From Methanothrix sp. (GTDB lineage: Archaea > Halobacteriota > Methanosarcinia > Methanotrichales > Methanotrichaceae): DNA of 64,000 nt. Shown here piece by piece: positions 109 to 62,405 of this stretch (positions within the stretch are counted from its first letter, which is position 1; each line of letters opens with the position of its first letter). The stretch covers positions 2,016,001-2,080,000 of the forward strand of contig OY821645.1 of NCBI GenBank assembly GCA_963682135.1, written 5' to 3'. Position numbers and translations under genes: made by a program. The notes beneath the pieces were generated by a model. It was not told the DNA's origin. It ran no database searches and saw nothing but the letters and a program-made list of their open reading frames with translations.

Positions 109-630
109 CTAGGCAATGTACAATATTACCATTTGAATTCCAGCTATAATCGCGAATAGAATTAGCATTAACGTAATACGCCCGCTCCATCGATGAACGG
201 TATGTATTCTCATATCCTTTGATTTGAATTGGAATATTCCGAGCAGAGGAGTCGCTACGAGAAAAACAAGGACGCTGGCGCCCAGATATGCATGCATTTC
301 TCGCACAAAAAATGTTTCCATGTACACGGATACCATATATGCTGCGATAGAAAGGCCTGCCAGAACAAATGCAACCCCTAACAGTGCCAGTTTTTTATGC
401 AATCCTACCCATCCCGTCCTTTGCTTTAGGTATCGTGCCGTGAATGCTCCACCTGTCAGAGACATAACCCCGACAACTACCATTATCATATGATATGGCC
501 AGGGTGGAGGAAATTGATGAGTATGAGCACTACCTCCTGCTTCTGAAGGATCATGTGCGCTTGCCACACCCATAAAAAATGATAGGAAAAATAATGAAAT
601 CATCAAGACATAGAGCATAGATTTCTGCAT
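109..630 (-). CDS. Cytochrome b561-like membrane protein with signal peptide
   Basis: Four TM helices with four His (YHMIM, LHKKL, MHAYLG, VHRWSGR) spaced as in diheme b561 domains. Confidence 0.65.
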   Translation of the reverse strand: MQKSMLYVLMISLFFLSFFMGVASAHDPSEAGGSAHTHQFPPPWPYHMIMVVVGVMSLTGGAFTARYLKQRTGWVGLHKKLALLGVAFVLAGLSIAAYMVSVYMETFFVREMHAYLGASVLVFLVATPLLGIFQFKSKDMRIHTVHRWSGRITLMLILFAIIAGIQMVILYIA

Positions 631-821
631 ATAACCGCCTCTATTGGTATTGGCTTCTCTATCTAGAAAAACGTTTGGCTATTTAGAAAATGTTTGAGAA
701 TCTGCCTATCTTCAGCATTGCTTACCGGCCCAACTCATAGTCACCCCTCAGTGGATGCTTGCAGGATCAGATTTATATTTCAATGCGCCATTGCTTGCTA
801 TCAAGTGAGTGAGGCGCAAAG

Positions 822-1472
822 ATGAGATGGATGCTTTTTACGATGCTGTTTGTTCTTGCTTGCATCGCTGCCAATATGGCTACTGTTAACGCAGATGATG
901 ATGATGCGGCTAGCGTCCAAACTACTGATGATTTATTAGCCCAGAACTTCACGGAGCATTCCTGGATATTTGTCAATGGCTACATGGAAGAGTCGAGAAT
1001 ACTGCAGACCGATATAGGATTTAAAGGCCAAAAGATGGCCCTCACCACAAGTGGAAGCGGAATGGCTACCAGAACTATAGACTCAGAGGTCTACCGGGAC
1101 TCGAATCGTGAAGAAGCATCGCTCACCATCTCAGCCAATTATGATTATGCACCCTACGTTCCTCCCCTCACACAAAGTGACCTTAGGAATGCTCTGTGCG
1201 CCAAGAATTACGAGGTGGGCTCTGTTTTTTCTGAGACCTACAACATCGATAAAGATCTCATAAAGGATACCAAGATCTACCAGAACGACAGCTTCTCCGT
1301 TTATGAGATCAGCTCCGAGATCCAGGGAACCGCCAGGATCGGCCAGCGGGTGCAGAAGAATGCCAAGACAGTGCCGTCCTTTATGATGAACGGGATGTAC
1401 GTGGGCTATGCGCAGATTAGGTCGGAGACCATTGTGGGAAATACCTCCGTCTTGACCCTGCCCTGCCCATAA
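822..1472 (+). CDS. Secreted hypothetical protein (paralog of 6089..7018)
   Basis: N-terminal signal peptide; LCAKNYEVGSV motif; ends in LPCP. Confidence 0.75.
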   Translation: MRWMLFTMLFVLACIAANMATVNADDDDAASVQTTDDLLAQNFTEHSWIFVNGYMEESRILQTDIGFKGQKMALTTSGSGMATRTIDSEVYRDSNREEASLTISANYDYAPYVPPLTQSDLRNALCAKNYEVGSVFSETYNIDKDLIKDTKIYQNDSFSVYEISSEIQGTARIGQRVQKNAKTVPSFMMNGMYVGYAQIRSETIVGNTSVLTLPCP

Positions 1473-1480
1473 GAGTGCCT

Positions 1481-1966
1481 TTAGATCGTGGTCGCATGGT
1501 GAGCCGCTGCTGCTACAGCTCGCATCTCCTGTGGGTCCAGAGCATAATGCAAGTGGCTCTGGCAGCGGCAATCCGTGCAGCCGAAACGGGGCACGGCCAT
1601 GAGCCGTTTCCCAATGGCTTTCGCGATGCTACACTCCAGATCCTGGGTGGTTTTGGTGATGAACACCTCCACTAAGCTGGTGTGGGGTAAGAGGTAGTCT
1701 ATGTGCCAGCGTCGAGTTGTTTTTATTCCCTCTAATACCTGAATGTGGCGATCTACACGCTTGAGGCCGCCCGGACCCCTCGCTGAACCGGTGTAAGAAT
1801 AAAAGCCGCTGACAAAGTCGATGACGTCCAGTGATCCGACCTCTATCTGCCTTGCCTGCGGCAAGAAAAGTATTAGTGAATAAATTCCCGGCTCATTTCT
1901 CTGCGGCTGCATGCCTGTTTCTCGTGATGGTGGATATTTGATCTTGGTGCTTTGTGGAGGAATCAT
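1481..1966 (-). CDS. DUF123 / GIY-YIG (Uri-superfamily) nuclease-like protein
   Basis: GIYSL..YSYTGSA, RWHIDYL, EC, FGCTDCRCQSHL motifs. Confidence 0.8.
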   Translation of the reverse strand: MIPPQSTKIKYPPSRETGMQPQRNEPGIYSLILFLPQARQIEVGSLDVIDFVSGFYSYTGSARGPGGLKRVDRHIQVLEGIKTTRRWHIDYLLPHTSLVEVFITKTTQDLECSIAKAIGKRLMAVPRFGCTDCRCQSHLHYALDPQEMRAVAAAAHHATTI

Positions 1967-2043
1967 GGAGGAAATATACGAGGGGCATATTAAAGCAAGT
2001 CTTTTCTAGGATGAAGGAGCAATTGGCTCTAGGTGAAAATTAA

Positions 2044-2637
2044 ATGAAGTTATTATTAGCAGCAACCATGATGCTGATGCTGTCTGCCATGGCGATGGCT
2101 GTGCCGGATAGCCAACAGCTCGGACCTTACACGGTATCGTTTGATCTAAATGCCAATTATCAGGTTCAGAATACCCAGCCCATTGAAATGAAGACTGCCA
2201 ACGCCTATCAGATGGGCTTATTTGTCGACAATTCCACCTATGCCACAATCGGCATAACTGAGTACGCCGAGCTGACAGATTCCACACTGATGGTTTTCAA
2301 GAGCATGTTACCGATGAGCATGATGCTCCAGGGCCTCAATGTCACAAATGTCGAAGATGTCGCAATTGAAGGGAAGGAAGGCTTCTTGGTTACAGGTACG
2401 CCTTACGAGGCAATGGCAGGAGCTCCAAGCCAAGTCTACCGAGCCATGTACTGGTTAGATAGCCAGGACTGCGAATGCGGACCGGTATCTGTAGGCAAGA
2501 CCAGCGTCGTAATCACCTCAACATATCCCTTGGATGTCACGCAGGGCCTGCTTTCCAGCCTACAAATAGTGATGGGCCAGGTCGCGACCACGGCTGCCCC
2601 ATCGGCTCAGGGCGGACAAATTCTGCCCCCTGCTTAG
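2044..2637 (+). CDS. Secreted hypothetical protein
   Basis: Signal peptide, RBS AGGTGA upstream, GPYTVSFDL N-terminal motif, DCECG motif. Confidence 0.75.
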   Translation: MKLLLAATMMLMLSAMAMAVPDSQQLGPYTVSFDLNANYQVQNTQPIEMKTANAYQMGLFVDNSTYATIGITEYAELTDSTLMVFKSMLPMSMMLQGLNVTNVEDVAIEGKEGFLVTGTPYEAMAGAPSQVYRAMYWLDSQDCECGPVSVGKTSVVITSTYPLDVTQGLLSSLQIVMGQVATTAAPSAQGGQILPPA

Positions 2638-2832
2638 GCGATTGAATTATCCGAGAAAACGACAACGGAAAAAGAGGCCTGAAATAGGCAGTTTCCGTTT
2701 TCGTCTCTCTTAAAAATCCGATCGATCCCCTCTGTACGACTTCTCGGAATCAAAGATTTATATCCATTGCGCGTCTTGGATGTTTGCATCTCTTTCAGTT
2801 TGAGGCGCTGAAATGTTTCGAGGTGGATTTGA

Positions 2833-3978
2833 ATGATCAGACCCAGGAAACTGTTTACGATTTCTATGTTTTTCATCCTGGCCGCTTTAATTGTGACCCT
2901 GCCGGGTCTTGGCCAGTGCTATGGTCTTCCCTCTCCGGGTGATGGGGAAGAACGCATCTTTGCTCAGAGTGCATGTGCCGGAGTGAGCAATGACCCGCCC
3001 AACCCTACAGTCTTTACCATTGATGAGCCAAGGACCATCACCAAAATTGGCACATATCACTGGAACGATGCCTCCGGCGAGTCGCCGGGGACTATTGGGT
3101 TGAGAGACGAACTGGGCAAGACCTACGGCCCCTGGCAGGCCGAAGGAGAATCAGGCCAGGGTGGCGTTCCTAATGCTTATTGGATCGTCTATTTAACTCC
3201 TGCATTGGATTTGCCTGCAGGAACCTATACTATTATCGACTCCAGCCCATCGACCTGGTCATACACTTACGAGAGCGGGGATTGCGGACTTGTCGCGGTT
3301 ATAGGTCTTATGGGCGGAAGCGACAGCGTGAAGTCTGCTCCCTGTGCTGGTGAAGGTGTGGACTATTCCCCCCGCAGTCCGACCGACCTTTATGATGCCG
3401 GCCCAGTGCTGGTTCCGGGCATGTACAATATCTGGTACGGCAAAAGGACCGGCACTCAGATAGGAATGCCTGACAAATGGAACCAACTGGGGCCAAAGGA
3501 GCTGTTGGGCGGCGAGTTCTATGTCTTTGATGTGACGGCAGCCGGCCTGGCCGAGTCTACACCCCAGATGATCGACCCCATGCTCACCAATCCAGCCCCC
3601 GGCGAGTCTCTGGTCTGGCTTAAGCTCAGCTTGGAAGATGCTTATGTGGTCTGCTTTGAGGGACCGCTGGACGGCGGGCTGAACCTGGCCGGTGCCTGGA
3701 AGATGTCCGGACATCAGGAAGGCTTCAACGATTGGAAGGCGGACCTGAATTTAAAGAAAGACGGCACCCTGGAATGGACGGAGACCGAGGGGGCTAATGT
3801 GGGGGCCAATCGAGAGGGAACCTGGCAATTCGATGGAACGGTCCTTACTCTGGAATGGGTATCGCCGGGCGGAGGACAGACCTCCTGGCAATCACGATCG
3901 GTTGCGAAAAATTCGATATCTTCCGGCACCTACACAGTTGAGAGAGCTCCGGGGGGGACCTGGTCTGCGATGAGGTAA
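2833..3978 (+). CDS. Secreted multidomain hypothetical protein (beta-rich, lipocalin-like C-terminal domain)
   Basis: Signal peptide, RBS GAGGTG, long ORF; LAGAWKM and GTWQF motifs in the C-terminal part. Confidence 0.7.
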   Translation: MIRPRKLFTISMFFILAALIVTLPGLGQCYGLPSPGDGEERIFAQSACAGVSNDPPNPTVFTIDEPRTITKIGTYHWNDASGESPGTIGLRDELGKTYGPWQAEGESGQGGVPNAYWIVYLTPALDLPAGTYTIIDSSPSTWSYTYESGDCGLVAVIGLMGGSDSVKSAPCAGEGVDYSPRSPTDLYDAGPVLVPGMYNIWYGKRTGTQIGMPDKWNQLGPKELLGGEFYVFDVTAAGLAESTPQMIDPMLTNPAPGESLVWLKLSLEDAYVVCFEGPLDGGLNLAGAWKMSGHQEGFNDWKADLNLKKDGTLEWTETEGANVGANREGTWQFDGTVLTLEWVSPGGGQTSWQSRSVAKNSISSGTYTVERAPGGTWSAMR

Positions 3979-3982
3979 AAGA

Positions 3983-4939
3983 ATGAATAACTTCTTGATA
4001 TCGATAATCACCATCATATCTTTGGTGGGGTGCATAGCTGCCGCAGATGGAAGCGGCGTGGAGCTGCGGCCAGGAGAAGCATTGGCAGAGATGCGATTTG
4101 AGAGTGGAATTGGCCAGCCATGGGTAGGCGGCAATCCACCATCATCCGGCACGTATGATTCCATATATTCTCAATACTATTGGAGCTACAAAGGATCAGC
4201 TCCCAAGAAGCATATTGATAGCCCAAAGAAGCATGTGATCGCTGATAGTCTGCCCAGCACAGTCTATTTCAGCTATCAGATGCAAGCCGTGCCGTACACT
4301 CAATATCAGAGCAATGCCGCCTACACCGGAGGAGACTCTTTGTGGATACTGGGCTCTTCCAGTTGGTCCCAGTATGCTAGAGTTCCCCAGTGGTCCGGTC
4401 TATCTCTGCTGGCAGCATCCACCAAAGGCGGCAAAGGATATCTGTATGAGATAACTCCTGATGGAAAGCTATCCAAGGAAAGCTTCTCCTTCTTCCCTGG
4501 CAGCAGCCAGATAGACTTCTATGCAGATACAATCGGCCAGCATGTGCTGCTCTTTGCAATTGGCGGCCAGGTAAGCAATGCCATAGTCATCGATGTTGTC
4601 AATGCCTATCCGCAAACATATCCGGCGACCCCTGGCTATCCACCTGCTCAGGTTCTTCCTCCTGCGACAACTGCTCCGCCTGCGATGGGTGACACCCCCG
4701 TGACGATAATCTCCCAGGGCATGAGTGGATATCAGGTTTTCCTGGATGGTAATTACATCGGCACTGAGGGGACGGGAGGAGACGCACTTGATGGAAGGTT
4801 CAGCTTCAGGGTGATTGGCGGCAGGAACCATGATGTTCGGGTCTATGATGGTCAGTTCAATTATCCGAAGACAATGTTCTTCCAAAAGGGCGTCCAGAAG
4901 ATAATCTACGTGGAACCGGGAACAGCAGTATATATTTGA
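3983..4939 (+). CDS. Secreted protein with Ig-like domain, Pro-rich linker and PEGA-like C-terminal domain
   Basis: Signal peptide; YQVFLDGNYIGT PEGA-like motif; closely follows the upstream gene; T-run after the stop. Confidence 0.7.
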   Translation: MNNFLISIITIISLVGCIAAADGSGVELRPGEALAEMRFESGIGQPWVGGNPPSSGTYDSIYSQYYWSYKGSAPKKHIDSPKKHVIADSLPSTVYFSYQMQAVPYTQYQSNAAYTGGDSLWILGSSSWSQYARVPQWSGLSLLAASTKGGKGYLYEITPDGKLSKESFSFFPGSSQIDFYADTIGQHVLLFAIGGQVSNAIVIDVVNAYPQTYPATPGYPPAQVLPPATTAPPAMGDTPVTIISQGMSGYQVFLDGNYIGTEGTGGDALDGRFSFRVIGGRNHDVRVYDGQFNYPKTMFFQKGVQKIIYVEPGTAVYI

Positions 4940-50491: not shown

Positions 50492-52132
50492 TCATCTCAT
50501 CACAGTTCCGCTAATTGTGATGAATAATAAGATCGAGAATAAACCTCCGAGAATTCTCTCCAGAACAAATACCTTTTTTATCAGATAGGGAGTCAGATAA
50601 AGAGCATCTGGTACGGCAGGCGGATCGATAAATAGCTTTGTTCCGGAAAGAAAGATCGTTGCGCTAAAGCTTATTGCGTACAAGAATCTATTAACCTTGC
50701 TCCATAAAATAGAATAACGCGATGGTTTTTTAATAATATTGTCTGCGAAGCTATATTCATCTCGTACGATCATATTGACTTCTGGTTTTCCTAGTCCAAC
50801 CCATGTCCAGAAAAGGCCAAAGATGGTTATGACCAATAAAGACCAGAGCAAAGGATTCAGGGGCTTCTTGCCATATCCATAGGAATATTGCAGGAATGTA
50901 TCCAGATATTTCATAAATGGGCGGGTCCCTGGCCAAGGCTGTTTTCTATGCTCAATTCGGTATTCGTAATAACAACTATCAAAGTCCTCATAGTAGCCGA
51001 GTTTCTTAAAATTCTCCAATAAAGATAAATATGCAGAATCATCGTAATCGAGCTTTTTAATATTATACCACCTTATATACAATTTATTGTAACTTGACCT
51101 CTTTAAAAAAAGAACGCCTTTGATTGTCGTGCCTTCAAATACCGCATCCCTACTAAATTGTCTATTGATGAAACTAAGATTATTATCAAAAATACTATCA
51201 AGAAAATAAGCTTCTTTGCCGAAATAACCTTGGCCGAAATCTACTGGTCCATGATAATTGGTTAGACTGAAGTAGGAACATTCGTCAAATCTTGAGTTAC
51301 TAAAGTCCGATGATCCGTTGAACTCAGAAGCAGTAAAATCAGCCAAATTTTTAAAATCAGACTCAAAGAAGCTAATATTCCCTTTAAAATAGGCATTTCC
51401 GAATTTGGTAAGGCCGTTGAATTTGCCATAATTGAAATCTGTTTGATCTCCAAAATAGGAGTACGAGAAGATCGCATCTTTATTAAACCTGGAATCGGTG
51501 AAAGCGACTGACTTTTGAAAACTTGATGCCTCAAAGTACGCATTTTTATTGAATGTCGAATGGATAAATCCGGCGGATTCACCAAATGTCGAGCTTTGAA
51601 AATCGGCTTCGTCATCGAACATGGATTCGCTGAAATCTACTGGCCCGATGAATCTGGAGTCCCAAAAGTGAGATTGACCGTTGAACTCAGAGTTTTGGAA
51701 ATTGGCGTACTTATTAAACTCACAGGCCGTAAAGTCAGCGATCCCGGTGATGTGGACGTTATTGAAGTCTGCCGATTCGCTGAAATTGGCGCAGCTATAG
51801 TACGCAGATTTATTAAAATCACAGTAACTGAAATCTGCAATTTCGCCAAACTTACAGTTGTTAAAATAGGCACCGCCATTGAAGCAACTTGTATTAAATT
51901 TAGCTCCGTTTGAGAAGGTGGTGTTATTAAAGTGCACATCCTCTTCTATCTTCGTTCCATTGAGAACCAGATTTCCGATTACGATGCAATTATCAAAATT
52001 AGCAATATCTCCACTTCTGATTGCAGTCTCGACTGCTCTGGCCGAAACCACCTCTTGGCTAATTGCATTGCATGTGGCAAACAGTGTCGCAATAACTAAA
52101 ATTATCATTATTTGCCACATGTGTACTAGCAT
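50492..52132 (-). CDS. Phe-type pentapeptide-repeat protein with C-terminal membrane domain
   Basis: Signal peptide, 11-residue (A/T)xFxxxxFxxx repeats, YGYGKKP followed by TM helices. Confidence 0.85.
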   Translation of the reverse strand: MLVHMWQIMIILVIATLFATCNAISQEVVSARAVETAIRSGDIANFDNCIVIGNLVLNGTKIEEDVHFNNTTFSNGAKFNTSCFNGGAYFNNCKFGEIADFSYCDFNKSAYYSCANFSESADFNNVHITGIADFTACEFNKYANFQNSEFNGQSHFWDSRFIGPVDFSESMFDDEADFQSSTFGESAGFIHSTFNKNAYFEASSFQKSVAFTDSRFNKDAIFSYSYFGDQTDFNYGKFNGLTKFGNAYFKGNISFFESDFKNLADFTASEFNGSSDFSNSRFDECSYFSLTNYHGPVDFGQGYFGKEAYFLDSIFDNNLSFINRQFSRDAVFEGTTIKGVLFLKRSSYNKLYIRWYNIKKLDYDDSAYLSLLENFKKLGYYEDFDSCYYEYRIEHRKQPWPGTRPFMKYLDTFLQYSYGYGKKPLNPLLWSLLVITIFGLFWTWVGLGKPEVNMIVRDEYSFADNIIKKPSRYSILWSKVNRFLYAISFSATIFLSGTKLFIDPPAVPDALYLTPYLIKKVFVLERILGGLFSILLFITISGTVMR

Positions 52133-53694: not shown

Positions 53695-55119
53695 TTACTT
53701 CTTGGGTGGCCAGTATTCCTTCATCCAGCCGATGATGCGTCCGGAGTCTTCTGGGCCGACCATAATCTTGGCCTTGCCTGCGAAGAGGTCTTCCAGCTCA
53801 CCGGAGAACTTGGCAGCCATTCCGGGCAGAACCATTGCCGGGAACTTCTGACCTGCCCAGTTGAAGGCAGCCTCGTTGAAGGAATCCAGGATCTTGGTCG
53901 GGCTCAACTGACCGCCGGCCACAGACGCCTGTACGCCAATTCCATCGGTATTGATGGCGATGATGTAGGCATCGATGCCGTTGGAGGCGATATCCGACTC
54001 TACTGTGTAGTAGGTCAGGGCGAAGTTCGTGGTCAGGAAGACCGGAGACTCAGCGCCTGGATTACCGACCTTGTAGATGCCGGGCTTGACCTGCACGGGT
54101 GTCCTTGGATCGGTGTAGATGTTGAAGCGCAGATGCATATCGGGCATCATGCTGTGAGCCTCAAGCGAGTGCTTGATCATGATGGCTCCGCCGCGAATGA
54201 CGAAGGCAGCAGTAAGCACGGACTCCCAGTAAGAAGCACGAACTGGATCGTCGGTAGTCAGCCAGGCGTTGATGGGCAGCACCATGACTGGATAGGCGAT
54301 ATCCCTCTGGGCTTCTTCAACAGCCGCTCTTCTCAGGTTGATGAAGTTGAGCAATGTCTGTTGCAGCAATTTGCCGTTTGGTGCGGTGCCGGGGTCCAAG
54401 ACGAGATCGTTAAGGCCCATTTCGGCAAAGGTGACGGCCATGGACTTCAGGCCATCCAGATCGAAGGGCACGGACAGCGTTACGGGCACCTTATAGTCAA
54501 AGGCGAGCTGAGCGACTTCCTTCCAGTTGTCCTTGTTGGCGGCGTAAATGAGTGGATTCACCTTGGCGGCGACCTCAAGTCCGGCCTTGAGAACGGCGGG
54601 ATTGAAGGAGCAGAGGATTAGCGGAAAGTCCGAATTGGCCATGACTGTCTTGACACAGGCTGCGAACTTGGCCGGGTCGTCGGTCACGGAACGGACGGCA
54701 ATCATCTCTACACCCTGCCACTTGCCGATGTAGAACTTGCGCCAGGTAGAGATCTTCTTGACACGTTCTACCAGCTTGGCCTCTTCCATGTTATCGGCAA
54801 CATCGTAGGCAAATGGCGGCTTGTTGAAGAAGGTCATCTGGTGGCGGAACATGACGTCCTCGCCGCCAACCTTGACCTGCTTTTCGCCAACGCCAACGTA
54901 TACCATTCTGAGCTCGGGAGCGACGATGCTCTTCAGAGCCACAAGCTTCTTGGCGTACTTCTTCTCATCTACCAGTGGAGTGCACTCCTCTACCTTGCGG
55001 GTCCTGGCAATCAGGCCGGCGGCAAAGGCCATGCAGGTCTCCTCTTTGCACTTCTTACAGTTAGTCTGTGGAAGCTGCTTGTAAAGGTTAAGCGGGCTAG
55101 TTTCCTTCATTTTACTCAC
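53695..55119 (-). CDS. cdhE: ACDS gamma subunit (corrinoid FeS protein large subunit)
   Basis: [33 protein letters not shown]. Confidence 0.96.
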
Positions 55120-56468
55120 ACCCCCATCTTGAGCCAGGCAGCAGTATCAGGCGTCTTGGCCTCAATTCTTCCCATCAGGGACTGAGTGATCTCATGCACA
55201 TAGGCAACCGCAGTCGGGTGCATCATCATGAAGATGTCCACACCGGCCATGGCCAGAGAGTATCCGGTCAGAATCTCCCAGATTGGGCCTCTCAGCATGC
55301 GGTCTCCCCAGTCGGAGTCGTCCTTGTTGGGTGAGCGGACCATCCAGGACTCTCTGACACCCCAGGCGTTGGTGGTGCCGGAGGACATGGGGAAAGTAAG
55401 CTCGTCATCGCCCTTCAGAGCGCCGAGACGAATTCTCTCCATGTTGGAGTAGGCGAAGTCCAGGCCGTAAGCGAGCGCTGCTGTGGTTGGGTCCATAACG
55501 ATGGACTCGCGGGGAACGCCGGCGACCTTCATGAGCTTCCTGTTCAGTTCCTTCTGAGAGTTGATCTCGAGCTGAGTCCAGGCCAGGCACACATGTCCGT
55601 TGTCGACACAAGCCTTGCCGATCTTCTCCCAATCCATATTCAGGTTGGCAGAGGCGATAAGAACGCGCTCGCCCTGGGCTACTTCTGCTGCCTTGGAGAG
55701 CACAATTGGGTCCTTATTGGGGTTGCCGGATCCGCCGATACAGATTGGCACATCCACAGCCTGCAATACCTCTTCAACGGTCTTGACTGCATCTTGAGCA
55801 GAGGTGTCCTTGAGGAGCGGATCAGTGCTGATCAGGTGAACGGTGACCATGTCGGCGCCGAACTTCTTGACAGCCTTCTTGGCCCACTCACCGGGAGAGT
55901 TGATGACATCCTCATAATGCATTTTGACGGCCTTGGCCATGCCGATGGGCATGTCGAAGACGTCCATGGTGATCTTGGGTGCATGAGGCATGGCTGCATC
56001 CGGGAAGAAAGGCATAGCCTTCTCGCCGCCCAGCTTGACCACATGACCGCGGCTTCCACCGTCTGCTTTGGTGGCGCCCAGTGTGACCTCTTGGATGGGG
56101 TTCCGCCAGGACTTGTCCACTCCGACGGCAAACTTGGCGCTGGCCAAGGCAGATGCTACCTTGAATGCCGGGACTGCCGCTGCCGCTGCTGCCAGATCCT
56201 TAGGAGCAGGAGAAATAGCCTGAGCTACTGCTACCGGCTGGAGCAGATTCTCTACGGGATAGCCTACAGCCTTGGCGAAGTTCATAAGCTGCATGGCAAT
56301 CTTGGCTGCCTCTTGCCCGAAATAGTATGCAAAGAGGGGGCCTACGCCGCCTGCACCTGCATCTATCTCTATCTCTACATCACCCTCGATCTTTAATCCC
56401 TCGAGGGATTGAACATTCATTTCCGCTAATGTCTTATTAAGGTCAGATAAAGAGATCTTCTCTGCCAT
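55116..56468 (-). CDS. cdhD: ACDS delta subunit (corrinoid FeS protein small subunit)
   Basis: GGSGNP.KD, MDPTT, MERIRL.AL.GD, NAWG.RE.W, MMMHP. Confidence 0.96.
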
Positions 56469-56479
56469 TCAAATCACCC

Positions 56480-57241
56480 TCACAGGCCCAATTTCCCGAC
56501 GACCTGAGTTATTTCTTGCACTGCAGGTGATTCATCGGGAAGGCCTACTATTGGATCTCCCACTAAATCGATTTTGGCTAAGTTTTCATCATAGGGAATA
56601 GTGCCGATAACCGAGAGACCGATGCCTTTAGCATTCTCCAGAACCCTATCCTTGCTTCCCGCTGTGACCTTGTTGACGATCACATAGAGATTTTGATACT
56701 TCAGCTCGATCTCGCGAGCAGTGTCACGTATGCGCTCGCCTGTGGTAAGCCCTCTTCTGGACTCATCCGTCACCACGATAAGATCGTCAAGGTCGGGAAT
56801 GGTCTTCCTGCTGAAATGCTCCAGGCCCGCCGGCGTGTCAATGATGATTAGATCGTAGCTGGCCGTGGTCTTATCCATAACGGCGCGCAAAAGATTGTTG
56901 ACAAAACAGTAACACCCAGATCCTTCCGGCTTGCCCATGACAAGAAGATCATAGCCTTCCTCCTCCAAGAGAATCTCGAAGAGTTTGGCCTCAAGAAGCG
57001 CTTGCTTGTCAGTATCCGGTGAAGCTGTGAACCGGGACTGCTGCACGAACTCCCTCATGTCGCCAATGGTCTTTCCGACCTTTGCGCCCAGCGCATCTGC
57101 CAGATTGGCATCAGGATCCGCATCAATTGCAAGTATTCGGTACTTTTTTTCAGAGTTCTTTACAAGGTGTCTGATAAGCATCGCGGTCACAGCTGTCTTG
57201 CCGGTGCCGCCCTTGCCGGTTACCGCTATTACTTTCCCCAA
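56480..57241 (-). CDS. cooC: CooC/AcsF nickel-insertion ATPase
   Basis: GKGGTGKT, IDADP, GCYC, DTPAGLEH. Confidence 0.93.
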   Translation of the reverse strand: MGKVIAVTGKGGTGKTAVTAMLIRHLVKNSEKKYRILAIDADPDANLADALGAKVGKTIGDMREFVQQSRFTASPDTDKQALLEAKLFEILLEEEGYDLLVMGKPEGSGCYCFVNNLLRAVMDKTTASYDLIIIDTPAGLEHFSRKTIPDLDDLIVVTDESRRGLTTGERIRDTAREIELKYQNLYVIVNKVTAGSKDRVLENAKGIGLSVIGTIPYDENLAKIDLVGDPIVGLPDESPAVQEITQVVGKLGL

Positions 57242-57254
57242 GGTCTAGCCTTCC

Positions 57255-57431
57255 TTATTTTTTCGGTTTTATGACAACTTCCGCTACATGGATGGATGCG
57301 CCTCTTAGCTCAATGGTCATTCCACCCGATGATGCTGCTGGCATAGCGAAAGCCGGAGCTGCTGCGCCTGCTGCTGCCGCAGGTGCGGCTGCGGCTGGAG
57401 CTGCTTCTTTCTTTTTAAGCTTAAGCTGCAT
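57255..57431 (-). CDS. 58-aa ACDS-beta-tail-like protein 2 (absent from ORF track)
   Basis: MQLKLKKKEAAPAAAAPAAAAGAAAPAFAMPAASSGGMTIELRGASIHVAEVVIKPKK; RBS GAGGGAG. Confidence 0.85.
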   Translation of the reverse strand: MQLKLKKKEAAPAAAAPAAAAGAAAPAFAMPAASSGGMTIELRGASIHVAEVVIKPKK

Positions 57432-57515
57432 AATATCTCCCTCACTTTGAACTAAAACGATAGGACTCGCTTGGTAAAATCCGCCCGGCTCCCCAAAAAA
57501 GGGGATAGGCAGACT

Positions 57516-57689
57516 CTACTTAGCGAGTACTACCTTGTCTATGCTGATCTTGGCATCCTTCAGTATCAGCTTAATGCCGCCGGCGCTGCCGGACATGGAG
57601 AAAGCTGGTGCTGCTGCCCCTGCGGCTGCAGGCGCGGCTGCTGGAGCCGCGGCTGGGGCCGCTTCCTTCTTCTTGAGTTTTAACTGCAT
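57516..57689 (-). CDS. 57-aa ACDS-beta-tail-like protein 1
   Basis: MQLKLKKKEAAP...GGIKLILKDAKISIDKVVLAK; RBS GAGGGTGA. Confidence 0.85.
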   Translation of the reverse strand: MQLKLKKKEAAPAAAPAAAPAAAGAAAPAFSMSGSAGGIKLILKDAKISIDKVVLAK

Positions 57690-57731
57690 AGATTTCACCC
57701 TCTTTTATTCTTTCTAACTCTGAAATTCACT

Positions 57732-59138
57732 TCACTCAAGTACGCCGTCTTCCTGCAGAGCCTCGACGACCTGCATGAACTGGCCCTCGGTCAAGGCAAG
57801 CTCGGACTTAACGGTATCGATGTTGATGTCTCCGCCGGTCTTCTCGATATAGGCCATGACCTTCTCTTTGATCTCGTCGGAAATATCCTCGAGCTTCCAG
57901 CCCTCGGTGATCTTCTTGCCATCGACCTTTCTGGCGACACCATCGACAACGGGGTGGTTGACCTTGAGCAAGAAGGCCTTAAGAGCAGTAATATCCTTGG
58001 CATCGTCTTCAGTGGCGATCTTGGCCATCATGTCCTCATCGATGCCTGCCTTTACTCTCTCCTTGAGACCCTTGGACATCCAGACGATCCTTCTCCAGCC
58101 GCCGTCGGCCTGGAGGAACTTGGGTGAGAAGTAGTAGAGAATACCCATTCCCAGGAATCCTACAACCTGCTTGCCGCCGCCGGTCTGACCTGCCATGGTA
58201 GAGAAGGGCAGTCCGTTGGGGGTTGCGCCCCTGAAGTCACGGTCGGCTAGACCAATGCCGTCAACCTCGGGCATGTAGAAGCCGATGGTCTCGAAGCAGC
58301 CACAAGAGGTGTGGGGTGCATCGAAGAACGTGTAGAGGAGCATCCTGCTGTACTCGCCGCCGGAACGCTTCGCAGCCATCTCGTTGATGGCTTCATACTC
58401 GCCGGCAACGGCGTCAACTGCGGTTCCCTTGGGTATGGGGAACTGGGGGCCCTCTGGGTCCACCTTGGCAGCTGCGCGTCCATCGAACCAGGTGATAGCT
58501 CCGCACAGGGATGGCCTGTCCGGGGTAACCACGCAGGCGCTGGTGGGAGCGAATGCCTGGCACAGTGTGCAGCCGTAGAAGACATCGACGTCCTCATCGT
58601 GCAGTCCCTTGGCGCGCTCATCACGTGTCTTGTAGACTGCCATGGCGTTGGCCAGCTCTTCCTTTACCTTGGCTGGATCGGTGACGATGGTGATCTCCAT
58701 CTTCTCGATGAAGGGCATCTCGGCCTTGTACAGCTCGATGACGGGGGTAAAGATCTCCTTCCAGGATGTTACACCCTTCTTCTTGAGGCTCTTGCCGATT
58801 CTCATCCAGATATCATATCTCTGGTTGAGGTGCATGAGGCCGCTGATGTAGGACAGCAGGGCATGGTTGCGCCTCTCGATGATGGACTCCAGGTCCTTCT
58901 CAATCTTCTCGCCGCCAACCTTGAAGATCATGCCGAAGGCCATGGTTGTGCCTTCTTTCATCTCTCCAAGATCCGGACCGATAACAGTTACCTTTCCATC
59001 GGTGATCTGGTCCATAGGTGTGGCCAGGGACAGCTCGAATCCGTCTGCCTTGGGGCCGCCCAGCTCTACCCATAGATCGTCTTTTCTAATTCTTTCGCCC
59101 TCAAACATAGGGGATATATCCAACTTTATGTCTGCCAT
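57732..59138 (-). CDS. cdhC: ACDS beta subunit (acetyl-CoA synthase)
   Basis: FYGCTLCQ, RPSLCGA, PHTSCGCFE, GGWRRIVW, NHPVV. Confidence 0.96.
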   Translation of the reverse strand: MADIKLDISPMFEGERIRKDDLWVELGGPKADGFELSLATPMDQITDGKVTVIGPDLGEMKEGTTMAFGMIFKVGGEKIEKDLESIIERRNHALLSYISGLMHLNQRYDIWMRIGKSLKKKGVTSWKEIFTPVIELYKAEMPFIEKMEITIVTDPAKVKEELANAMAVYKTRDERAKGLHDEDVDVFYGCTLCQAFAPTSACVVTPDRPSLCGAITWFDGRAAAKVDPEGPQFPIPKGTAVDAVAGEYEAINEMAAKRSGGEYSRMLLYTFFDAPHTSCGCFETIGFYMPEVDGIGLADRDFRGATPNGLPFSTMAGQTGGGKQVVGFLGMGILYYFSPKFLQADGGWRRIVWMSKGLKERVKAGIDEDMMAKIATEDDAKDITALKAFLLKVNHPVVDGVARKVDGKKITEGWKLEDISDEIKEKVMAYIEKTGGDINIDTVKSELALTEGQFMQVVEALQEDGVLE

Positions 59139-59170
59139 TAATACACCTCTTCTGTTAAATGAGATGAACT

Positions 59171-59734
59171 TTATTTCTTCATCGCTGCGATTACTTCATC
59201 CACCGCGGCGTGATAGTCGTCTGGGTTGAAGGCCATGTTGCCAAAGGTCATATTCGCATTGACGTGATAGTAGCGGTCAATGGATATGCGCTTGATGTCC
59301 CTGTTGAAGTTCTTGAGAGTTGCGAACATGGCGTTGGCGAATTTGTAGAAGATGCCCATAAAGATAACGGCATCATACTGGCCCTGGCCATCCAAGCCCT
59401 TCCAGTCAGGGAAGCGCAGGAAATTGGTCAAGGGATGCAGGCCGATCTGATAGACGTTCTCCAGGTAGCCTCTGTCCACAAAGCCCTTCACGGAATGTGC
59501 CGTGGCGGCAATGGGTATGCCCATCTTGCCCATCTCGATCATCTTATCGAACATGATGGGGTCGTCAAAGAGCTCTGCTCCAACCACGAGCAATGGTCTC
59601 TTGGACTTCTTGATAATAGCGCCGAGAACCTTCGGCATGTAGGTCTTGGCCATCTCCGGCCCAGGAATCTGGGCCATCTCAAAGGGAACGGCGTTCTTGG
59701 TGGTGTCAATGCCCTTCTTAACTTCTGCTGCCAT
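59171..59734 (-). CDS. cdhB: ACDS epsilon subunit
   Basis: KRPLLVVG, W.GLDGQG.YD, YHVNANMTF. Confidence 0.93.
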   Translation of the reverse strand: MAAEVKKGIDTTKNAVPFEMAQIPGPEMAKTYMPKVLGAIIKKSKRPLLVVGAELFDDPIMFDKMIEMGKMGIPIAATAHSVKGFVDRGYLENVYQIGLHPLTNFLRFPDWKGLDGQGQYDAVIFMGIFYKFANAMFATLKNFNRDIKRISIDRYYHVNANMTFGNMAFNPDDYHAAVDEVIAAMKK

Positions 59735-59754
59735 TTTTATCTCCTCCTTTGCCC

Positions 59755-62172
59755 TCACTTCTTGGTCCTGATCTTTCTCGGCAGGTTGGTCGGATCGAAG
59801 CTTACATCAGCAGGCCGCAGCGGTCCGGAAAGGATCTTCTTGGCCTTCCAATCGATCGTCCAGCCAAACTTCGACTCGAGAGTCTTCATCATGTTCTCCT
59901 TGTATGCCAAGGGCAGATCCTTGACATCTCGAACGAAAATGTGCCAGTCGTCGGGCAATTTGCCGAAGTACTTCATGGAGATATCGCAGTAGTGGGTCAG
60001 CTTGATCGATCTGCCGATACTGTTATCGGAAGGTCTGAAGCAGAGCTTGGCCATCTCCAGCATGGCTTCTTCCTTGGTCTCAGCGATATACAGCATGGCC
60101 TCAGGTGCGGGCTCAATCTGCTGCATCTTGCCGTCGCGAGCATCGATGACCATCCAGTCCTCAGGCTTGTCCGTCCTGCCTATGAAGGAGCGGCGGTACA
60201 TGACGGAGTGTGGCTGAACTACCACAGGTATTCCCAGCCTGTTGCAGCCGGTTGCAATGGCGGCTGCCTTCTGAGAGTATGCACCCCAGGCGACACCGCA
60301 GGCGCCTACCTTGTTCAGGATGTAGTCGGCGATATCATCGAAATTGCCTCGGTGATTTCTGTGAGCGAAGATAGTGGCCACCTTGATGGCAGCATCGCCG
60401 ATATTGGCGTTGGAGACGCATGAGCCGGTGTTGCAGATGTTCCTGCCGTCAAAGCCGCCGGGATACTGCTCCCAGATGGTCTTGCCATCGGCATCGGTGT
60501 AAAGGGACATATCCATGGCCATGCATCCAGAGGTTACGACTATGTAGCCGCGGTCCACGAACTCCTTGGCCATATCGTAGGCTTCCTTGGTGCCGTTAGG
60601 ATAGTTGCTGCATCCGACAAGAGCAATGACTCCGGGAATGCTTCCCATGACAATGGGCATGCCCACAGCCCTGATCTCAGTGTCGCGCGCGGGGCCGCGT
60701 CCGGATCTCATCTTGAACTTCTGATCCTTGACAGCCTGGCGGTTAGCATACTCGAACAAATCGAGAATGTTTATGCCCTGTGGACAAACCTGCTCGCATC
60801 TGCCGCAGCCAACGCAAACCTCGTATGTGTTGGAGAAGGTGCTCAAGTCGCCCTTGACTGCATCGCCGATAAGCTTGCTGATTCGGATATGAGGCGGGCA
60901 GACGAAGGCGCATTCGTTACAGGTGGTGCACTTTTTGATGCCTTCCTGGAAGGCAGCCTCTGTGATCAGGCTCTGCGTCCTTGCCTCGGCACGCTTTGGC
61001 TTGACAGCAATAGCGGTCTTGATGCCCACAATTCCTGCCTTGGCTGGATCGAGAATAGCTACGCCTGGTACCTTGAAGTTCACCAGATCATCAACAATCT
61101 CATCTATGGGATCATTGGTCCTGTCCTTCAAGCCCAGCATGATCTTATCTGTAGTGGCAATGACCGGTATCTTGCGCTTTTCGGAATCCGCCAGCACATC
61201 ACACCAGACGCACTGCTCATCCACCATCACGCAGTCCATGACTCCGGCCCGGACCATCTTTCTCCACCAGCCAATCGCGCCAGCCACCTTGGGCTTGGTA
61301 CCTATGCCAGCAGGAACCTTGGCTTCGCCCTTGCCCAGGCCGATTCTGTTCAGGTCGTGGGCTGTGCAGCAAACGCCACCGATATCCACTTTATCCCAGA
61401 GGTTATTCTCTTCTGCGTAGACCATGGCCTCGGCACCAGCTGCCAGGTTATGGCCGTAGGCTATGAGAACACCCTTGTTCTGGTCCATAGTGCCCATGCC
61501 GATCTCGATGATTGGGGCATCAGCCGCACCACGGGGCATGTTGTAGGCCACGATCTGCAGCATATCGCAGATTTCCATGCCCAGCAAATCCAGCATGCCG
61601 GCGTGCAGAGCTTTGGACTCGAAGTCTATGTAGGCGCCCTCTTGGCCGGTATGGGTGGCAGCCAGAAGCTGTACGACCCCTTCCTCCAGGTAATAGAGCC
61701 CCTCATTGAAGTCTTTGAAGGATCTGGGCTTAGTGCCCATGATAGTCTGGTACAGGGGAGAGTCTACCAGAATCTCGTCGCCCATGTCGAACTTCATGTC
61801 GCCGAACTTATCCATGCACCAGTGGTAAAGGTGCCTGCCGTGGGCGGAGTGGGCACAGGTACCCATTAAACATGCAATCAAAACGATTTTGCCGCAGGCA
61901 CCGGCCTGATCAATGCCACAGGCACCGCGCTTGTTTCCGGTCAGGTCGCACGGACCGTAGGTACACAGCGAGCAGGTATCGTCTGCCGGTGCGTACATAA
62001 TCTTGTACCTGTTGGCGATGATGTGATCCCAGGTTCTGAGCGTTGCCACGCCTGGCTTGGGATGTGGACCCATCTCCTGGTCCCACTCCTCGGCCTCCTT
62101 AACGACAGCTCCGATGTTGATCTGGACGTTCTTCATGTCCTCAACCGAAAAGCTGCCCTCTTTTGTTGCCAT
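59755..62172 (-). CDS. cdhA: ACDS alpha subunit (CO dehydrogenase)
   Basis: CSLCTYGPC, GVCCTAHD, two ferredoxin CxxCxxC motifs, GSCVSN, WGAYSQKA; start MATKEG with RBS GAGGAGG. Confidence 0.97.
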   Translation of the reverse strand: MATKEGSFSVEDMKNVQINIGAVVKEAEEWDQEMGPHPKPGVATLRTWDHIIANRYKIMYAPADDTCSLCTYGPCDLTGNKRGACGIDQAGACGKIVLIACLMGTCAHSAHGRHLYHWCMDKFGDMKFDMGDEILVDSPLYQTIMGTKPRSFKDFNEGLYYLEEGVVQLLAATHTGQEGAYIDFESKALHAGMLDLLGMEICDMLQIVAYNMPRGAADAPIIEIGMGTMDQNKGVLIAYGHNLAAGAEAMVYAEENNLWDKVDIGGVCCTAHDLNRIGLGKGEAKVPAGIGTKPKVAGAIGWWRKMVRAGVMDCVMVDEQCVWCDVLADSEKRKIPVIATTDKIMLGLKDRTNDPIDEIVDDLVNFKVPGVAILDPAKAGIVGIKTAIAVKPKRAEARTQSLITEAAFQEGIKKCTTCNECAFVCPPHIRISKLIGDAVKGDLSTFSNTYEVCVGCGRCEQVCPQGINILDLFEYANRQAVKDQKFKMRSGRGPARDTEIRAVGMPIVMGSIPGVIALVGCSNYPNGTKEAYDMAKEFVDRGYIVVTSGCMAMDMSLYTDADGKTIWEQYPGGFDGRNICNTGSCVSNANIGDAAIKVATIFAHRNHRGNFDDIADYILNKVGACGVAWGAYSQKAAAIATGCNRLGIPVVVQPHSVMYRRSFIGRTDKPEDWMVIDARDGKMQQIEPAPEAMLYIAETKEEAMLEMAKLCFRPSDNSIGRSIKLTHYCDISMKYFGKLPDDWHIFVRDVKDLPLAYKENMMKTLESKFGWTIDWKAKKILSGPLRPADVSFDPTNLPRKIRTKK

Positions 62173-62405
62173 CGGAATCTTAGCCTCCTCTTCCTTTGAT
62201 ATACGGCGTTTGGGTTCGCATAGAGTAGATAAAACACTTTCGGATATCAAATAATATAAAATTTGCGAGATCCTGAAGAATTTCATAGTAGTGTTTTTAT
62301 AAATTAACCAACATAGCATAGCGATGCCATCCAATCACGATCGTTAATGGAAGATTTTCCGTCCACAAGATTGAAATGCCATCAAAAATGAAGGCAAGGA
62401 AATCC

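Follow-up and report, generated by a model that had tools for sequence, protein, structure and literature searches.

What becomes of the C-terminal tail of acetyl-CoA synthase (ACS) in an archaeon whose enzyme ends without it? The question is raised by a stretch of 64,000 nucleotides (nt) from Methanothrix sp. (assembly GCA_963682135.1, contig OY821645.1, positions 2,016,001 to 2,080,000; hereafter the window), the minus strand of which carries a complete cdh operon encoding the complex called acetyl-CoA decarbonylase/synthase (ACDS), with genes for carbon monoxide dehydrogenase (CODH), ACS (CdhC) and the corrinoid iron-sulfur protein (CoFeSP). Methanothrix is among the few methanogens growing on acetate alone (PMC12621877; this and the other papers are cited from excerpts), and cdhC is single-copy in this genome, which consists of one 3.04-Mb contig. 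Two recent structural studies leave the archaeal ACS tail of about 75 residues without an established function: one describes it as of 'unknown function' and unresolved by electron microscopy (PMC11474084, excerpt), and the other, a 2026 preprint, proposes that CdhC residues 401-470 and CdhA residues 1-43 bind a disordered N-terminal region of CdhD acting as a central coiled-coil scaffold, its authors conceding a 'lack of biochemical data' for the tether proposal (PMC13370988, excerpt). Methanothrix, as well as several alkane-oxidising archaea, encodes this tail as separate 6-kDa proteins; those of Methanothrix, here named sA and sB, are probably small ACDS subunits that act as free tethers of ACS, docked on a domain at the end of CdhC and binding the scaffold of the complex through their C-terminal motif.

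A preliminary description of this DNA had claimed that two tandem open reading frames (ORFs), each with its own ribosome-binding site (RBS), lie between cdhC and cooC and represent the tail that the neighbouring CdhC lacks. Both ORFs are there, encoding 57 and 58 residues on the minus strand, and CdhC is indeed without the tail, as its match to NF003379 (E 5e-206, residues 2-417) ends at model position 418 of 464. sA and sB match the missing C-terminal extension (positions ~411-464 of NF003379 and TIGR00316); sA alone aligns with positions 417-458 of NF003379 (E 3.4e-5) and 411-460 of TIGR00316 (E 9.3e-4). Three modules make up sA, namely an N-terminal strand that is basic and alternating (QLKLKKK), an Ala/Pro linker that includes PAFSM, and GGIKLILKDAKISIDKVVLAK as its C-terminal motif, while sB combines the same kind of N-terminus and linker with the tail GGMTIELRGASIHVAEVVIKPKK, so that a flexible low-complexity linker precedes a GG-led amphipathic motif in each; the two such motifs quoted in the preliminary description are present letter for letter. 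The proteins are 57% identical; sA keeps the canonical tail motif, and the variant of sB (..ELRGAS.H.AEV..) is similar to the one copy that the Syntrophoarchaeum and Alkanophaga types have.

The fused counterpart is found in Methanosarcinaceae, where the sA query finds the cdhC 3' end in 63 of 67 genomes, inside frames of 466-483 residues among the matches listed, with one exception, a 62-residue frame (G087). Five CdhC tails from this family read HP(V/I)V..W, poly-Glu, an Ala/Pro/Met linker and GG(I/V)K(L/I/V).(L/F)KNAK(I/V)S(I/V)D(K/R)..I, ending after the linker in GGIKLTLKNAKISID..II, and thereby agree with the composition that the preliminary description gave for Methanosarcina-type CdhC. 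In the window the tail is not covalently continuous with the A3 domain of ACS, nor is it at 37 of 41 family loci or in six further families, and two free forms carry the label 'CODH/ACS beta subunit' in IMG. Judged by their sequences, sA and sB are homologues of the CdhC C-terminal tail, that is, free-standing versions of the flexible tether.

Conservation in related genomes, on which the preliminary description had staked its reading, is extensive. A six-frame search of 61 Methanotrichaceae genomes gives an sA/sB match (E <= 1) in 58 of them and in all 16 genera, nearly always as two tandem copies in short open frames; G007 and G048 have weak matches only, and G053, G038 and G046 (assemblies 94-97% complete) have no match. 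The order cdhC-sA-sB holds in 37 of the 41 family loci inspected, the exceptions being L034 (a lone sA-like gene), L041 (a cdhC-sA pair) and L048 and L049 (masked bases). At all 70 confirmed loci of close relatives of the small genes, the records are titled Methanothrix, Methanosaeta, Methanocrinis or Methanotrichaceae, apart from a few that bear no title beyond 'uncultured Methanosarcinales archaeon' or 'uncultured archaeon'.

The tail-less CdhC runs 70 residues beyond the conserved HPVV and ends in a conserved acidic winged-helix-like C-terminal domain (CTD), which persists throughout Methanotrichaceae and is conserved in 28 sequences of five families. No Pfam domain is recorded over this region of the window CdhC. 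In a comparison of the profile of these 28 sequences with the PDB, the top match is 2xvc_A, the winged helix of CdvB, an ESCRT-III protein of archaea (E 7.7e-4; profile positions 32-75 on residues 12-55 of 59), followed by LrpA, IclR and SNF8, and all matches are winged-helix or helix-turn-helix (HTH) domains; in addition, DUF7343 (PF24034) matches 26 of the 28 members at E <= 1, with a best E of 2.8e-5. An AlphaFold2 (AF2) model of 76 residues (CdhC residues 393-468) places helices at 29-42, 48-54 and 59-72 and would thus contain the three-helix HTH core. The CTD stops four residues past predicted helix 3 and shares the CdvB-type architecture, in which the domain terminates directly behind helix 3 and the first strand of the wing, the remainder of the wing being absent. 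An N-terminal element, R.VDGKKITEGW, is found in five of seven split families and in many CdhC of the fused type, which match the CTD profile only over positions 1 to ~35, with this element ahead of poly-Glu. A 46-residue fragment of an Alkanophagales CdhC cluster is labelled 'DeoR family transcriptional regulator' at NCBI; with a net charge of -2 to -19, however, the CTD is unlikely to act as a DNA-binding regulator. An ESM Atlas search returned only the protein's own unnamed clusters, and a word-indexed CTD search yielded 38 matches, all in Methanothrix-like CdhC, and is uninformative on the range of the domain because it is confined to them. A CTD-like match (profile positions 6-73, E 5e-8) was also observed in an 87-residue frame of a genome of family f14 with a fused-type cdhC (G322:C250:3047-3259); this frame may hold the domain in free-standing form or be a fragment from the end of a contig.

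The preliminary description had asked whether free tails accompany tail-less CdhC, and the CTD and the free small protein do co-occur strictly. Searched with a small-protein profile, a set of 1.84 billion representative proteins yielded 46 matches at E <= 0.001, which include free proteins of 60-84 residues that differ in their linkers and share the N-terminal KKLKLKxKKK strand and the C-terminal motif. In a survey of 401 sampled genomes of the phylum, the same profile matches 217 genomes, mostly inside cdhC frames of 447-539 residues, the fused type. A full-length CTD is present in 29 of the 401, comprising 13 of Methanotrichaceae (f1) and 16 of six further families, whose labels are taken from identical proteins: Ca. 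Methanolliviera (f11, 4), 'Methanosarcinales archaeon Met12' / 'Methanocellales archaeon' (f10, 3), 'Methanocellales archaeon' (f8, 3), Ca. Syntrophoarchaeum (f21, 3), Ca. Alkanophaga (f32, 2) and Methanonatronarchaeales (f24, 1). In 29 of these 29 genomes, a free small ORF with the N-terminal strand directly follows that cdhC. Among 37 metagenome loci, a full CTD occurs in all eight with a free small ORF and in none of the 27 with the tail inside a long frame, two being fragments. The six families besides Methanotrichaceae have a single free copy after the CTD-bearing cdhC, and two tandem copies at one locus are confined to Methanotrichaceae among the rows listed. The split is therefore not specific to Methanothrix; the duplication alone is.

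Several neighbouring arrangements were observed in the same survey. Genomes labelled Syntrophoarchaeum (L128/L129, L147/L148) and Alkanophaga (L132/L133, L149) have two cdhC genes, one of the split type and one of the fused type, on different contigs. In one f10 genome (L123, G215:C10:13000-19500, positions 835-3051), the cdhC frame has 739 residues, with an N-terminal extension of about 285 residues that may represent an additional fused domain or a join made in assembly, and two sister genomes have 454 residues. In the metagenome loci L156 and L157 (for example L157 1181-2593 and 3312-3509), a fused-type CdhC of 471 residues is accompanied by a 66-residue frame about 700 nt downstream, in which the tail motif recurs and the basic N-terminal strand is lacking.

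In one lineage, the charges of the two proposed partners are reversed together. In six families, the net charge is -2 to -6 over the last 12 residues of the CTD and +2 to +6 over the 16 residues that open the small protein. In the Methanonatronarchaeales-labelled genome the signs are exchanged, with a CTD end (...KELKKRKILA) of net +4 and a small-protein start (MSEEEVLELSLAGEDE) of net -7 that keeps the alternating hydrophobic pattern. Such a reciprocal swap is what a direct contact between CTD and strand would predict, and together with the co-occurrence with an acidic CTD it lends indirect support to docking of the small-protein N-terminus on ACS. A precedent for the contact is found in CdvB, whose 'broken' winged helix binds the E3B strand of CdvA with a dissociation constant of 6 uM, the missing strand being supplied by the E3B peptide (review PMC5840170, excerpt).

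A tether of three modules can be proposed on this basis. The basic alternating N-terminal beta-strand (LKLKxKKK) would fill in the truncated acidic winged-helix CTD and in this way fasten the tether to ACS again without a covalent bond, much as the CdvA E3B peptide completes CdvB. The Ala/Pro-rich flexible linker of 20-30 residues would provide reach, and the amphipathic motif GG-IKLILK(D/N)AKIxIxKVxL, common to all CdhC tails, would bind the central scaffold, which, following the published proposal for the fused tail (PMC13370988, excerpt), would be the disordered N-terminal region of CdhD. In the window, the N-terminal ~120 residues of CdhD comprise an acidic alternating strand, a helix and an Ala-rich linker, which makes them, by analogy with that proposal, a candidate partner for the tails of sA and sB. 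Together, the modules would hold ACS close enough to CODH and CoFeSP for both to be reached. The gene is duplicated in Methanotrichaceae, where the diverged tails of sA and sB probably each have a binding site of their own or else form a pair. The split form represents a natural experiment, in that the tail can be deleted, tagged, titrated or swapped with the enzyme left untouched, and the proposed dock of CTD and basic strand offers a simple pair for in vitro work.

A number of observations weigh against this reading. The partner of the C-terminal motif is a published proposal only (PMC13370988, excerpt), and the charge swap is that of one lineage. Aligned by itself with NF003379 (positions 417-460), sB reaches E 0.058, which is not significant alone. 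The window CTD scores 16.8 bits against DUF7343 (E 0.0064), below the Pfam gathering cut-off of 27.6 bits, and for this reason the domain is called only winged-helix-like and is not filed under DUF7343. Confidence in the AF2 models of the CTD is low, with predicted local distance difference test (pLDDT) values of 51.5 and 56.3 for two alignments, the latter value being that of the 76-residue model; the Z-scores of the model against HTH domains of the Lrp/AsnC type (5.5-6.2, root-mean-square deviation (rmsd) 1.6-2.6 over 48-50 residues) and against 2xvc (4.7, rmsd 2.4 over 48 residues) span 4.7-6.2, within the range that the comparison tool calls common; and a Foldseek search of the PDB with the model gave no match at E <= 0.001. 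Furthermore, at L034 (G008:C8:25500-29000, positions 736-1895; genus g8), the 3' end of cdhA and cdhB are followed by a lone sA-like gene of 52 residues with no adjoining cdhC, and therefore the small protein may also, or instead, serve CODH.

This last arrangement leads to the alternative that sA and sB are independent glue of the ACDS core, with both ends binding the scaffold (the termini of CdhD and/or CdhA) or CODH, and not ACS; the CTD would then have some other role, for example in direct contact with CODH or CoFeSP. Besides L034, a second locus of genus g8 is relevant here: L041 (G022:C1:850300-854300, positions 524-4000) holds a second cdhC with a CTD and an sA-like gene, without sB or cooC. 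At both loci, a gene for a NarI/HdrE-like membrane protein (PF02665, E 2.8e-4) and one for an Fe-S dicluster protein come after the extra cdh pieces, and those at L041 are HdrE/HdrD-like; L034 shows that a tail protein is also encoded with CODH without ACS. Free small genes exist for other scaffold pieces as well, since at L120 (2029-2253, minus strand; f11, Methanolliviera-labelled) and L125 (4093-4329, plus strand; f8) cooC and cdhD flank an ORF of 75-79 residues that is paralogous to the N-terminal ~70 residues of CdhD and lies beside a full-length cdhD; this ORF has no Pfam match. The acidic alternating strand of CdhD could, moreover, pair with the basic strand of the small proteins. What such a glue leaves unexplained is the joint presence and absence of the CTD and the N-terminal strand in the 29 genomes and eight metagenome loci, and equally their joint change of charge, and the alternative is accordingly judged unlikely, although it has a real chance of being right. 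The tether docked on the CTD is the reading retained here.

Proximity to cooC suggests a further role, in maturation, whereby sA and sB would aid the delivery of nickel by CooC to the A-cluster or escort apo-CdhC. The small genes stand directly upstream of cooC in 35 of the 37 complete cdhC-sA-sB loci of the family, and in the window only 13 nt separate the sB stop from cooC. This position is, however, accounted for by descent from, or fusion to, the cdhC 3' end, and in the loci whose labels read Syntropharchaeum, Alkanophaga and Methanonatronarchaeales, cdhD comes next after the small gene, without a cooC. The proteins also offer no metal-binding residues, because neither has a Cys and the single His is in sB only, which leaves a maturation role very improbable.

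Both small genes are real and under purifying selection. They share the start MQLKLKKKEAAPAA, and 8 of their first 14 codons differ, all eight synonymously (33 of 42 nt identical), as had been noted in the preliminary description and taken there as a sign of selection on the protein. Ratios of nonsynonymous to synonymous polymorphism (pN/pS) relative to the window copy bear this out, with values of 0.12 for sA (39 sequences) and 0.21 for sB (36 sequences) over the 17 codons of the tail, and of 0.41 (26 sequences) and 0.21 (36 sequences) over 8 codons of the N-terminus. The cdhC-to-sA junction consists of the stop codon, a 42-nt spacer, an RBS and an ATG, and orthologues in the family have the same start, with GGAGG or GAGGG at an equal distance upstream. 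The exact sB sequence occurs in a protein collection (34 contigs), from which the ATG form of sA is absent. Metatranscriptome contigs from four of four runs cover every bin of 57000-59200, and one 322-nt RNA contig bridges sB to sA; being contigs only, these runs show presence in RNA libraries and not transcript ends, strand, level or translation. Taken with the starts and RBS, the selection on codons suggests that sA and sB are translated. That the two ORFs go untranslated and are left over from a decayed cdhC 3' end or its duplication is hardly credible, as purifying selection with synonymous-only divergence, a conserved RBS and start, and intact frames over seven families outweigh the missing ATG form of sA and the 'hypothetical' status of relatives in several databases.

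The sequence CCCCTTTTTTGGGG directly 3' of the sA stop may be a hairpin or oligo-T attenuator, or a processing site, that would set differing levels of sA and sB. A promoter and terminator pattern scan called no terminator on the coding strand, this site included. In three of four runs, the RNA contigs in the bin 57444-57517 add up to one of the lowest depths, a figure that cannot rank expression.

The preliminary description had also held that the tail was split off from CdhC and duplicated. The homology and the duplication within Methanotrichaceae stand; a splitting-off, by contrast, presupposes a direction, and split-type CdhC do not form one clade. In an unrooted maximum-likelihood tree of 44 CdhC cores (22 split, 22 fused), the state changes five times, at least three of these changes being forced by well-supported branches, and none of 200 bootstrap trees has a single change. 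Constraining the split type to one clade costs 213 log-likelihood units (approximately unbiased (AU) test, p 8e-83), and the split-type copies of Syntrophoarchaeum and Alkanophaga form a deep clade of their own. A single fission in the ancestor of Methanotrichaceae is ruled out by the tree and the AU test, from which it follows that the split or fused state changed several times or that the 3' module was exchanged. Repeated fission and the repeated fusion of an older split form are equally likely; an in-frame deletion turning split into fused could be easier than repeated insertion of the same dock. It is conceivable, if rather doubtful, that the free tether with a CdvA-CdvB-like dock is the older form, that the Methanosarcina extension arose by repeated fusion with loss of the dock, and that sA and sB alternately hold ACS at CdhD and CdhA. 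If true, ACDS would possess an unrecognised class of small subunits, and the hand-over of ACS between CoFeSP and CODH would be set by the exchange of non-covalent tethers and not by one fixed leash.

Comparison with known systems delimits what is shared. The canonical CdhC extension (residues 398-472 of the M. thermophila beta subunit; 401-470 of M. acetivorans CdhC) has the same motif, GG-(I/V)K(L/I)xLK(N/D)AK(I/V)xIxK, preceded as in sA and sB by a low-complexity Ala/Pro(/Met) linker, and occupies the same place after the A3 domain of ACS and before cooC. In contrast to this extension, sA and sB are separate products with their own RBS and with a basic N-terminal strand replacing poly-Glu; the tail is present here in two diverged copies, and CdhC bears the winged-helix-like domain instead. 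The CdvB-CdvA E3B pair (PDB 2XVC) is the best match to the CTD profile among solved structures, and both domains end a few residues past helix 3. In CdvB, a short beta-strand of the partner supplies the missing strand in trans (PMC5840170, excerpt), whereas peptide binding by the CTD is putative; structural scores are modest, no sign of shared descent is seen beyond the general winged-helix fold, and the element R.VDGKKITEGW is an addition of CdhC.

The swinging arms of 2-oxoacid dehydrogenase E2 and biotin carrier proteins are alike in that an Ala/Pro linker joins a small terminal module to a multienzyme complex. They differ in that sA and sB have no lipoyl or biotinyl domain and no cofactor-lysine motif conserved in both paralogues. 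Membership in the lipoyl/biotinyl class was rejected, the weak NCBIfam matches to SucB, MmdC and MmdD (E 0.02-0.5) covering the Ala/Pro linker only. The N-terminal scaffold region of CdhD is likewise a conserved terminal ACDS peptide that has been proposed to build the core (PMC13370988, excerpt), and like the tail it has an extra free-standing small gene in two families (L120, L125). Composed of a helix, an acidic strand and a coiled-coil helix, it is not homologous to sA and sB.

The literature searched contains no account of the split tail, the CTD, their co-occurrence, the charge swap, the occurrence outside Methanotrichaceae or the non-monophyly; the supplements of PMC13370988 and PMC11474084, which lie outside that search, may show CdhC alignments. 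The preprint PMC13370988 has no mention of winged, Methanosaeta, Methanotrich, Methanoliparia or 'small protein', and the excerpts of PMC12621877 and PMC11493965 contain nothing on the tail. The annotation can also be corrected, the small genes being at present 'hypothetical', 'secreted protein' or missing and the CTD having no domain annotation. Coordinates are given in Table 1.

Table 1. Features of the cdh operon and its small genes, in window positions
Feature	Positions	Strand	Basis or remark
cdhA (CODH alpha subunit), ORF as listed	59755-62334	-	Prismane plus Fe-S domains
cdhB (CODH epsilon subunit)	59171-59758	-	PF02552
cdhC (acetyl-CoA synthase, ACDS beta subunit), 468 aa, without canonical tail	57732-59138	-	PF03598 + PF19436
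CTD, CdhC aa 399-468, acidic, three-helix winged-helix-like	57735-57944	-	profile + predicted structure
RBS of sA, GAGGGTGA	57695-57702	-	5-12 nt upstream of sA ATG
sA, free-standing CdhC-tail protein, 57 aa plus stop	57516-57689	-	translation
CCCCTTTTTTGGGG, directly 3' of sA stop	57491-57504	-	read from sequence
RBS of sB, GTGAGGGAG	57437-57445	-	5-13 nt upstream of sB ATG
sB, divergent paralogue of sA, 58 aa plus stop	57255-57431	-	translation
cooC-type nickel-insertion ATPase	56480-57241	-	CbiA/ParA-type P-loop matches
cdhD (CoFeSP small subunit)	55116-56468	-	PF03599
cdhE (CoFeSP large subunit)	53695-55119	-	PF03599 plus PF04060

For cdhA, the true start is probably an internal ATG giving MATKEGSF.... 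Elsewhere on the minus strand of the window (50492-52132), the ORF list contains a 546-residue ORF with pentapeptide-like FN/FS repeats and C-terminal hydrophobic segments.

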